Both the position numbers and the translations under genes were made by a program. From a virus (Duplodnaviria > Heunggongvirae > Uroviricota > Caudoviricetes), in IMG/VR virus record IMGVR_UViG_2711768060_000001, positions 1 through 12,660 of that record: 12,660 nucleotides of DNA, one strand, 5' to 3'. The notes under the pieces are model-generated. The model ran no database searches, was not told the origin of the DNA, and worked only from the letters and a program-made list of their open reading frames with translations. This document shows, one piece after another, positions 1,046 through 2,423 of this stretch (position 1 is the first letter of the stretch; the number at the start of each line of letters is the position of its first letter).

Positions 1046-1120
1046 TGGAGCGGGTAGCGGGAATCGAACCCGCATCATCAGCTTGGAAGGCTGAGGTAAT
1101 AGCCATTATACGATACCCGC
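1046..1120 (-). tRNA. tRNA-Gly (anticodon UCC)
   Basis: Minus-strand sequence GCGGGTATCGTATAATGGCTATTACCTCAGCCTTCCAAGCTGATGATGCGGGTTCGATTCCCGCTACCCGCTCCA folds as a cloverleaf: 7-bp acceptor stem, anticodon loop CUUCCAA, T-loop TTCGATT, encoded CCA. Confidence 0.9.
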
Positions 1121-1123
1121 ATA

Positions 1124-1199
1124 TGGTGCCGACTACCGGAATCGAACTGGTGACCTACTGATTACAAGTCAGTTGCTCTACCTACTGAGCTAAGTCGGC
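1124..1199 (-). tRNA. tRNA-Thr (anticodon UGU)
   Basis: Minus-strand sequence GCCGACTTAGCTCAGTAGGTAGAGCAACTGACTTGTAATCAGTAGGTCACCAGTTCGATTCCGGTAGTCGGCACCA: acceptor GCCGACT/AGTCGGC, D-stem GCTC/GAGC, anticodon stem ACTGA/TCAGT with loop CUUGUAA, T-loop TTCGATT, encoded CCA. Three nt separate it from tRNA-Gly. Confidence 0.9.
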
Positions 1200-1260
1200 A
1201 TTGGTTCTTCGGGGGAGCGATATCACCGATGAACAGGAGTTCCCCTCAGAACCGTTGCGC

Positions 1261-1288
1261 ATAATAACGGGCAAAAAAATTACTTCAA
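1261..1288 (-). promoter_or_regulatory. Candidate promoter for the tRNA-Thr/tRNA-Gly transcript
   Basis: On minus strand: -35 TTGAAG (1288-1283), 16-nt spacer, -10 TATTAT (1266-1261), then GC-rich GCGC discriminator; about 55 nt upstream of the mature tRNA-Thr 5' end. Confidence 0.35.
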
Positions 1289-1376
1289 CCAAAATAATCC
1301 GAAAAATAATCCCGGATTTGTAAATATATGCATATTTTTTATTTTTTCTAAAATAAAGAAATTACCAAATACACAT

Positions 1377-2423
1377 TTAACGATTATTTTTTATTTCAGT
1401 TACAGTCTGATTAAATCTCTCTTCTTCCAGTTCCACGCCAATCGCACGGCGTCCCAGTGAAAGTGCCGCTTTTATTGTTGAGCCTGAGCCCATGAAAAAA
1501 TCAGCAACCAAATCACCCGGACGGCTGCTGGCAGTAATTATCTGGCGCAACATATCGGCTGGTTTTTCACAGGGATGTTTGCCAGGGTAATACTGCACAG
1601 GCTTGTGCGTCCAGACATCCGTATACGGAACGGCAGCCGATACGGAAAAATAACGCCGCAGGGATTTGTACTCTTCCAGCAGGCTGGCATATTGCTGGTT
1701 CAGTTCACTGTATGTGCTGACCAGCTGGTGGTGTGGCTTTTCCGGTTCCCCGCGCTGATGTTTTTCTGCCGCAACACGCGCAAACAACACCTGCAATTTG
1801 TTGTAATCACCCTCGTTCGGTAATTGCCACTGACTGGTACCAAACCAGTGCGAAGCCATGTTTTTCTTTCCGGTGGCTTCCGCTATCTGTTTTGACGTTA
1901 TCCCCAGTGATTCACGCGCATCGCGAAAGTAAGAAATCAGCGGGGCCATGACGTGCTGTTTTAGCTCGCGCCCCTTTGCCGCATAGCCGTCATTTTTGGG
2001 CTGGTATGGCCCCTGATAATGTTCTGCAAACAGAATGCGTTCTGTTGCCGGGAAATACGCCCGCAGGCTTTCCTTGCTGCATCCGTTCCAGCGTCCGGAC
2101 GGCTTCGCCCAGATAATGTGGTTCAGCACATTAAAGCGTTCACGCATCATGATTTCGGTGTCAGATGCCAGGCGATGACCACAGAACAGGTAAAGACTTC
2201 CGGCAGGCTTCAGTACCCGCCAGAACTGCGCCAGACATCGGTCCAGCCATTTCAGATAATCATCGTCGCCCTTCCACTGGTTATCCCAGCCCTCGGGCTT
2301 CACTTTAAAGTATGGCGGGTCTGTGACTATCAGATCGACAGAGTTTTCCGGTATGGTCTGGATAAATTCCAGGCAATCAGCGTTGATTAACTCACAACTG
2401 GATATTTTTACAGTATTAGCCAT
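1377..2423 (-). CDS. Orphan DNA methyltransferase (N6-adenine or N4-cytosine, DPPY-type, beta-class motif order)
   Basis: 348-aa ORF with ATG start; motif IV TDPPY near the N-terminus (LIVTDPPYF) and motif I FxGxG near the C-terminus (DFFMGSGST). No restriction endonuclease partner nearby. Confidence 0.85.
   Translation of the reverse strand: MANTVKISSCELINADCLEFIQTIPENSVDLIVTDPPYFKVKPEGWDNQWKGDDDYLKWLDRCLAQFWRVLKPAGSLYLFCGHRLASDTEIMMRERFNVLNHIIWAKPSGRWNGCSKESLRAYFPATERILFAEHYQGPYQPKNDGYAAKGRELKQHVMAPLISYFRDARESLGITSKQIAEATGKKNMASHWFGTSQWQLPNEGDYNKLQVLFARVAAEKHQRGEPEKPHHQLVSTYSELNQQYASLLEEYKSLRRYFSVSAAVPYTDVWTHKPVQYYPGKHPCEKPADMLRQIITASSRPGDLVADFFMGSGSTIKAALSLGRRAIGVELEEERFNQTVTEIKNNR

Follow-up and report, generated by a model that had tools for sequence, protein, structure and literature searches.

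Two tRNA genes and an orphan DNA methyltransferase gene stand side by side in the late region of an Escherichia coli lambda-like prophage, and their position raises the question of what each element is and whether they form one functional unit. The window (the whole stretch of DNA analysed, 12,660 bp) is contig CXYG01000041.1 of assembly GCA_001269325.1; features are given in window coordinates and lie on the minus strand unless stated otherwise. The minus-strand order is DUF968, RusA, the late-gene antiterminator Q, ORF105, the methyltransferase (MTase), tRNA-Thr, tRNA-Gly and a holin. A near-identical copy of the window (99.75%) on a 125-kb contig continues from this cassette into two holins, an M15 endolysin, the terminase and the portal. 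The placement of the tRNA and MTase genes between a Q-like gene and the lysis region, proposed in an earlier sequence-only reading, is confirmed by the positions of Q (3683–2988) and of the holin (from 297 leftwards). On the basis of identities, homologies, conservation, covariation and gene order, the region is interpreted as the late-operon leader of a lambda-like prophage with three independent accessory modules, namely the methylase, a tRNA cassette and a structured RNA trailer. The probability of this reading is estimated at about 0.75.

The tRNA pair and the adjacent methyltransferase

tRNA-Thr(UGU) (1124–1199) and tRNA-Gly(UCC) (1046–1120) were identified by ARAGORN and by the Rfam tRNA model RF00005, with scores of 73.8 and 65.6 bits, respectively, against a gathering score of 29 bits. 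At the gathering threshold, Rfam detects only these two tRNAs within the window. The genes are separated by a 3-nt spacer (TAT, 1121–1123), have GGCACCA and GCTCCA ends that both encode CCA, and retain all of their helices, in agreement with the earlier description of an intact, CCA-encoding pair 3 nt apart. tRNA-Thr is identical to E. coli K-12 thrU at 76 of 76 positions, and tRNA-Gly matches K-12 glyT at 73 of 75 positions. The two differences in tRNA-Gly compose a compensatory replacement of the acceptor-stem pair C6:G66 by U6:A66. By these identities, the tRNA cassette is derived from the enterobacterial thrU and glyT genes, and the suggested resemblance to the host thrU cluster, with tRNA-Tyr missing, is borne out by the absence of tyrU. 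The window and the K-12 thrU-tyrU-glyT-thrT-tufB operon share the mature tRNAs and a sigma-70 promoter with GCGC after the −10 hexamer. However, the window lacks tyrU, thrT and tufB, contains the 3-nt spacer in place of tyrU and 116 nt, and has an unrelated promoter, leader and trailer.

The tRNA dyad is widespread in phages. When the dyad is counted as a Thr-NNN-Gly junction in IMG/VR contigs, at least 119 contigs contain it, 80 of which were analysed. The TAT spacer is found in 77 of these 80 dyads, and tRNA-Thr is identical to thrU in 42. In the phage tRNA-Gly, the C:G pair of the host type and the U:A pair are about equally frequent and U·G intermediates occur; pairs 5:68 and 6:67 exhibit another compensatory state. 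Such compensatory variation is a signature of functional tRNAs under structural selection. One IMG/VR copy displays the anticodon UUU on the tRNA-Thr scaffold. Codon usage was compared between 26 genes of the near-identical prophage and 41 K-12 genes. ACA accounts for 24.6% of the threonine codons in the prophage versus 10.3% in the host (Fisher p ∼7e-8), and GGA for 19.7% versus 7.8% of the glycine codons (Fisher p ∼1e-8), corresponding to a use of both codons ∼2.5 times that of the host, in keeping with codon supplementation.

The MTase (1377–2423) is a 348-residue protein that matches the N6_N4_Mtase family (PF01555, E 3.9e-45) across residues 29–340, with a central insertion. The DPPY motif at residue 35 and the FMGSG motif at residue 310 are arranged in the order of the β-class N6-adenine DNA methyltransferases, and the enzyme is intact. 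The MTase is identical to M.EcoGII at 292 of 347 positions over the full length (84%), including 125 of 134 positions in the N-terminal catalytic part and 64 of 78 (82%) in the target-recognition domain; the M.EcoGII sequence used was machine-read from a PDF (PMC11551740, Table S1), and a few positions are possibly misread. The MTase is also 84% identical to the enzyme of phage 1720a-02, which was named as a close relative in the M.EcoGII paper (PMC5778455), and 72% identical to SUPREM (PMC11551740), which is a reconstructed ancestor and still lacks site specificity. The nearest relatives of solved structure are the β-class enzymes M.RsrI, M1.MboII and CcrM, which are matched in the catalytic core only.

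Judged by this homology, the MTase is a member of the M.EcoGI/M.EcoGII family. Like M.EcoGII (349 residues), it combines a DPPY motif, a target-recognition domain and an FxGxG motif in this order, is borne by a prophage downstream of Q and is not accompanied by a restriction partner. The window allele differs from M.EcoGII in its 16% divergence, in an activity and specificity that are predicted from homology, and in being followed by tRNA-Thr and tRNA-Gly rather than by tRNA-Met/Arg/Arg and stx. M.EcoGI and M.EcoGII are prophage-encoded non-specific adenine methylases of E. coli O104:H4 C227-11, for which Murray et al. (2018; PMC5778455) proposed a function in defeating restriction during infection. 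Neither enzyme is expressed in the normally growing lysogen, and constitutive expression slows growth (PMC5778455). Given this family membership, the anti-restriction role suggested earlier corresponds to a documented proposal rather than a guess, and the window allele would be expected to methylate adenines non-specifically. The family is common in Shiga toxin (Stx) phages, and most of the M.EcoGII sequence is found in 151 phage records.

The absence of a restriction partner, also claimed earlier, is consistent with the surrounding genes. Outside the MTase, none of the open reading frames (ORFs) in positions 1–5095 matched a restriction-modification nuclease. PADLOC matched the MTase with MTase_II models only and yielded no defence-system match for ORF105, Q or DUF968. 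The scanned surrounding ORFs thus contain no nuclease or defence match, and the designation as an orphan is correct.

The methylase and the tRNA dyad are distributed independently. tRNA genes occur near 6 of 80 methylase homologues (different Enterobacterales species), leaving 74 without them, and a methylase lies directly upstream of the dyad in 7 of the 59 viral contigs that contain enough upstream sequence. Of the dyads, 73 could be analysed: 34 of them are solitary, and at least 35 belong to a Met-Lys/Arg-Thr-Gly array, in which they make up the 3′ half. These proportions indicate independent modules, and a link between the methylase and the tRNAs was rejected on the same counts (74/80 and 7/59). 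Their adjacency is, by this distribution, a matter of mosaic chance.

The annotations of 94 complete E. coli genomes and of the LT-IIb prophage SerU-LTIIb (KU052038) show the same succession of a methylase, tRNA-Thr and tRNA-Gly. In KU052038 and the ∼94 RefSeq E. coli prophages, the methylase, dyad and trailer exhibit 90–95% DNA identity to the window in the same order. KU052038 differs from the window in that its first dyad contains a tRNA-Arg(UCU) on the tRNA-Thr scaffold, a second dyad is present, and the LT-IIb toxin genes follow the endolysin gene. This tRNA-Arg(UCU) (KU052038 positions 8930–9005), which is also found in E. coli strain 41, corresponds to the tRNA-Thr scaffold with G35C, G24A and A31G substitutions relative to the other prophage tRNA-Thr copy. 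The G24A substitution disrupts a D-stem pair, and the charging identity is uncertain; the gene may be an anticodon-switched or a decaying tRNA. A literature search on prophage-borne Thr/Gly tRNAs found nothing directly relevant in the library searched.

The same slot contains tRNA and toxin cargo in Stx phages, as the sequence-only reading had proposed. In Stx2 phages, a homologous methylase gene that lies after Q is followed at a distance of ∼40 nt by tRNA-Met/Arg/Arg and then by stx2AB. In phages 1720a-02 and Stx2_EH2201, these tRNAs are a tRNA-Met(CAU)-like gene, tRNA-Arg(UCG) and tRNA-Arg(UCU) upstream of stx, and the slot lies, as in the window, between the methylase and the lysis genes. 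The tRNAs are followed at some distance by an STnc100-family RNA, in a manner similar to the STnc100-like domain of the window. In contrast, the window tRNAs are Thr and Gly, toxin genes are absent from the window, and the gap between the methylase and the tRNAs is 177 nt with its own promoter and leader instead of ∼40 nt.

Promoter, leader and upstream signals

The predicted tRNA promoter consists of TTGAAG and TATTAT hexamers with a 16-nt spacing (1261–1288), followed by a GCGCAAC discriminator that extends to position 1254. The motif matches 9 of 12 consensus positions. The scan yielded 10 sites in total versus 4.9 ± 2.4 expected, which is no better than chance, and its best-scoring site falls within the tRNA genes; the scan was therefore replaced by comparative conservation. 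Across seven aligned E. coli loci, TTGA in the −35 hexamer and TA.TAT in the −10 hexamer are invariant islands, and the spacer is variable. The TTGnnn-16-TAnnAT pattern is retained in all 28 distinct stand-alone upstream sequences, which differ in the sequence of their spacers, with the −10 hexamer ending 57–76 nt before the tRNA. Judged by this conservation, the promoter is real in an evolutionary sense. The 8 nt after the −10 hexamer contain a mean of 60% G+C in these 28 sequences versus 25% upstream of the −35 hexamer, and the GCGC that directly follows the −10 hexamer is specific to the window allele. The earlier claim of a promoter with a GC-rich discriminator is supported by the conservation of the hexamers, their spacing and the GC-richness in general.

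A 5′ leader helix (1203–1253) is formed between GGTTCY..GGG and CCC..RGAACC and closes 3 nt before the 5′ end of tRNA-Thr. RNAalifold analysis of 18 divergent leaders assigned nine pairs to the helix, four of which show compensatory changes. Pairing is observed in 94.4% of the alignment cells, compared with at most 69% when the partners are slid, and on three measures, none of 500 shuffles came up to the observed values. Close to the −35 hexamer of the tRNA promoter, on its upstream side, the window contains 11 inserted nucleotides that the six other aligned loci lack; the insertion generates a hairpin (1296–1318) of AATCCGGGATT...TCGGATT and a T-run. This hairpin may be a weak, allele-specific terminator for methylase transcripts.

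The MTase gene is preceded by a different set of signals. A candidate pR′-like late promoter (TTGCAA-17-TATATT, 2976–3004) was located at the end of Q by a consensus scan only, and its position agrees with the lambda paradigm. An intrinsic terminator with a 12-bp stem and a T-run (2898–2925) lies directly 3′ of this putative promoter and resembles tR′, and a second intrinsic terminator (2587→2570) was found after ORF105 by a terminator scan. A consensus scan of the segment between the second terminator and the MTase start codon (2424–2570) detected no promoter-like site. With the pR′-like promoter and the two terminators (2925→2898 and 2587→2570) as the only upstream signals, the MTase should be silent in the lysogen and dependent on Q, and its expression is predicted to be restricted to the late phase.

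A structured RNA trailer and the flanking genes

The tRNA dyad is followed by a 391-nt trailer that extends from tRNA-Gly to an intrinsic terminator (681→661). Folding and conservation define the first half of the trailer (828–1045), which comprises a branched domain and a ∼98-nt near-perfect hairpin (828–925). The second half (651–850) comprises a divergent STnc100-like small RNA domain, recognized by sub-threshold Rfam matches and by our own model, and ends in the terminator. The minus strand of the trailer folds with −141.7 kcal/mol (z −7.7), compared with −90.4 kcal/mol (z −3.3) for the plus strand. The hairpin at 828–925 (−48.6 kcal/mol, z −8.2) displays pair-preserving substitutions and is retained more often than any other part of the trailer; its ∼8 G·U pairs render it strand-specific. 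No conserved reading frame was found in the trailer, and no scanned ORF has a family match.

The trailer structure is conserved among 22 distinct homologues with 79–100% identity. Their consensus contains 111 pairs, with 98.7% of 2,428 cells paired, and 47 pairs vary, 8 of them with compensatory changes; slid controls pair in 40–53% of the cells. Of 5,426 complete E. coli genomes, 349 (∼6%) contain the trailer, nearly always without annotation, and it is found after the dyad in phages that differ in their Q genes and lysis cassettes. Because no promoter-like site or terminator lies between the tRNAs and the trailer, co-transcription is the simplest reading, and the trailer is probably transcribed together with the tRNAs.

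The STnc100 model (Rfam RF02076) scores 19.2 bits on positions 651–850 and 22.6–24.4 bits at the same place in four relatives. The core CGGGAGGCACCCGnCACC is common to the trailer domain and STnc100 and is located within an outer GGUG/CACC helix. A covariance model was built from the STnc100-like domain of the window and 21 homologues (model R1). This model matches exactly four STnc100 copies that are confirmed by Rfam (132–150 bits) at matching coordinates with E values of 1e-6 to 3e-4; these copies belong to an Stx2a phage, phage 1720a-02 and an E. albertii prophage. Its match to PasD2 of enteropathogenic E. coli (EPEC) is marginal (E 0.026). PasA and PasD of EPEC E2348/69 were considered as the identity of the trailer and rejected, as BLAST similarity was not detected and the PasD2 covariance match is marginal.

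A recent proposal holds that PasD and STnc100 are kindred prophage small RNAs of the late-region niche (Zhu, Shabalina & Storz, 2026 preprint, 10.64898/2026.05.13.724894). The trailer domain resembles these RNAs in its location in the late region of a lambdoid prophage between Q and the lysis genes, its size of ∼200 nt, its 3′ intrinsic terminator and the reciprocal model matches. It differs in its scores of 19–24 bits against 47, in the lack of BLAST similarity to PasD2 and PasA (E2348/69), and in its position 3′ of a tRNA dyad and a long hairpin, where a promoter of its own is not evident. We read the segment at 651–850 as a probable divergent member of the STnc100 family rather than a curated one.

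The region between tRNA-Gly and the holin gene spans 748 nt without a credible ORF. The two small ORFs of this region that were scanned (53 and 74 residues) have no Pfam or PHROGs match; two further ORFs comprise 35 and 83 residues, and the 83-residue ORF overlaps tRNA-Gly. Frame-breaking 1-nt indels among the homologues argue against coding in this region. Two tandem intrinsic terminators (322–381; 13-bp and 6-bp GC-rich stems with T-runs) are located just 5′ of the holin start codon and ribosome-binding site. Transcripts from the tRNA promoter would be kept out of the holin gene by the 681→661 terminator and by this tandem pair (381→322). The tandem-terminator segment is among the best-conserved parts of the spacer between the tRNAs and the holin (∼50% of dyad loci), and PasA occupies the equivalent position in EPEC prophages with no sequence similarity.

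The remaining genes of the locus are typed by family matches. The holin (1–297) is the first of the lysis cassette and is represented by its N-terminal 99 residues, continuing past the left end of the window (PF16931, E 2.4e-18; PHROG 198, holin). Q (2988–3683, 231 residues) matches PF06323 (E 1.5e-87) and PHROG 304 ('anti-termination protein Q-like') and has no match among solved structures. ORF105 (2577–2894, 105 residues) encodes a conserved phage protein of unassigned function (PHROG 331, E 1.7e-47) with, in addition, a weak winged-helix match (TrmB-type helix-turn-helix) only. ORF105 is flanked by the two terminators, and related prophages contain a 65-residue hypothetical protein or a MazF toxin in its slot. 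RusA (4039–3674) and DUF968 (5095–4040) lie further upstream. On the plus strand, opposite to the phage early genes, a ParD antitoxin and ParE toxin pair (5448–6073; PF03693 and PF05016) is located between the DUF551 and DUF968 genes. From window position 10435 to 12660, the match to the prophage of contig JAFMWO010000016.1, which is 99.75% identical elsewhere, is lost, indicating that the right-hand (early/immunity) ends of the two prophages in the window differ.

Proposed function, alternatives and significance

In the proposed mechanism, the MTase would be made only once Q renders RNA polymerase resistant to the terminators. The enzyme would then methylate adenines of the phage DNA during its replication, with little if any preference for sequence, and the progeny could escape restriction in the next host. 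The tRNA cassette would be read from its own sigma-70 promoter and processed by RNase P and 3′ exonucleases, and the pair would supply extra decoding of ACA/ACG and GGA/GGG codons. The ∼390-nt trailer, with its long hairpin and STnc100-like domain, would end at the strong terminator, which, together with the two terminators before the holin, would shield the lysis genes from transcripts of the tRNA promoter. A more tentative extension treats the segment from the promoter to the STnc100-like domain and its terminator as a single Q-independent unit that is active in the lysogen, with a small RNA matured from the trailer of the tRNA operon and the hairpin serving as an RNase III-type site. If this extension is true, the cassette would act as a mobile moron, a 'tRNA plus riboregulator' that adjusts both translation and gene expression in the host, beyond serving as a codon supplement for the phage.

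Several observations weigh against parts of this interpretation. tRNA-Thr is decaying in the prophage of E. coli ETEC1732 (locus L092, ∼1727–1799), where it contains 11 substitutions and a CACTA end and is not called by PGAP, and tRNA-Thr of A36 (locus L093, 1704–1779) contains an acceptor-stem mismatch; tRNA-Gly is intact beside it in both. Decay in cryptic prophages suggests that the module is dispensable once the phage is defective. In the codon sample, AGA and AGG are enriched about fivefold (17% versus 3.6%), and a tRNA-Arg is not carried. The codon argument is therefore non-specific for the choice of Thr and Gly, and the enrichment may reflect a general base-composition bias of foreign DNA; the suggested check of late-gene ACA and GGA usage yielded the ∼2.5-fold excess but no specificity, as AGA and AGG are enriched more. 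Methylase specificity can shift within 16% divergence, and the target-recognition domain of the MTase differs from that of M.EcoGII at 14 of 78 positions. The covariation counts of the trailer are inflated by the shared ancestry of close homologues (mean column identity of 89%), and the STnc100 score in the window lies below the curated threshold (19.2 bits versus a gathering score of 47).

Three alternative explanations concern the tRNAs. An origin as the host thrU-tyrU-glyT-thrT operon or its remnant, marking a prophage boundary or attachment site, would be in line with the 100% and 97% identities of tRNA-Thr and tRNA-Gly to the K-12 genes and with the common use of tRNA genes as integration sites. 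However, coaA, tyrU, the 116-nt spacer, thrT, tufB and the host promoter are all absent from the window locus, and the flanks (200 nt upstream and 145 nt downstream), when aligned locally with the K-12 thrU-tufB locus, yield only chance matches of 9–25 nt. Phage genes are present on both sides, continuing in the 125-kb contig from the cassette through the holins and endolysin to the terminase and portal, and the dyad recurs in many different phage backbones. With flanks unrelated to the host operon, the pair is not a prophage boundary; the synteny comparison refutes this origin, which we regard as scarcely tenable. It is very improbable that the tRNAs are functionless hitch-hikers drifting to pseudogenes. 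The degenerate tRNA-Thr genes of ETEC1732 and A36 and the anticodon-mutated copies (Arg UCU and Lys UUU) in other prophages would fit such drift, but both window genes are intact and fully paired, tRNA-Gly has changed in a compensatory manner, and the retention of the promoter hexamers, leader helix and spacer in at least 28 divergent contexts indicates purifying selection. A counter-defence function against tRNA-targeting toxins of the host or of competitors, with the tRNA-Gly acceptor variant as an escape allele, draws on the compensatory variation of pairs 5:68 and 6:67 among phages, which includes three pairing states and a U·G intermediate. For other isoacceptors, there are documented cases in which phage tRNAs counteract tRNA-cleaving defences. 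The anticodon stem-loops of the pair are, however, identical to those of the host genes and would not evade an anticodon nuclease; about half of the phage tRNA-Gly copies keep the host-type acceptor stem, tRNA-Thr is usually identical to thrU (42/80), and we know of no toxin specific to the Thr/Gly pair. This function is thus improbable.

The remaining alternative takes up the epigenetic role raised in the sequence-only reading and treats the MTase as a sequence-specific orphan similar to Dam or CcrM, which would be expressed in the lysogen and regulate genes of the host or the prophage epigenetically. Kinship with the β-class enzymes M.RsrI, M.MboII and CcrM and the 14 substitutions in the target-recognition domain are compatible with this role. 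In contrast, the MTase shares 84% full-length identity with an enzyme of demonstrated non-specificity and is bracketed by a non-specific ancestor of 72% identity, a promoter-like site is absent between the second terminator and the MTase start codon, and M.EcoGI and M.EcoGII are silent in their own lysogen and slow growth when expressed constitutively. An epigenetic regulator is thus unlikely, and the reading of the locus as a late-operon leader with three independent modules is preferred.

The region is an ordinary mosaic of known element types, comprising an M.EcoGII-family methylase, a widespread tRNA dyad and a small-RNA region, and is new only in detail, in its leader helix and its divergent STnc100-like trailer. 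Its practical value is small, and the current understanding is not overturned. For the orphan methylase, the family assignment provides a functional prediction of non-specific N6-adenine methylation in lytic growth only, which bears on the interpretation of methylomes and on restriction evasion by induced phage. The Thr/Gly dyad emerges as a widespread, self-contained mobile cassette in the hot spot of the tRNAs associated with Shiga and LT-II toxins. The trailer is a conserved structured RNA that is left blank by annotation pipelines, and it would extend the STnc100/PasD group of prophage small RNAs below the Rfam threshold.

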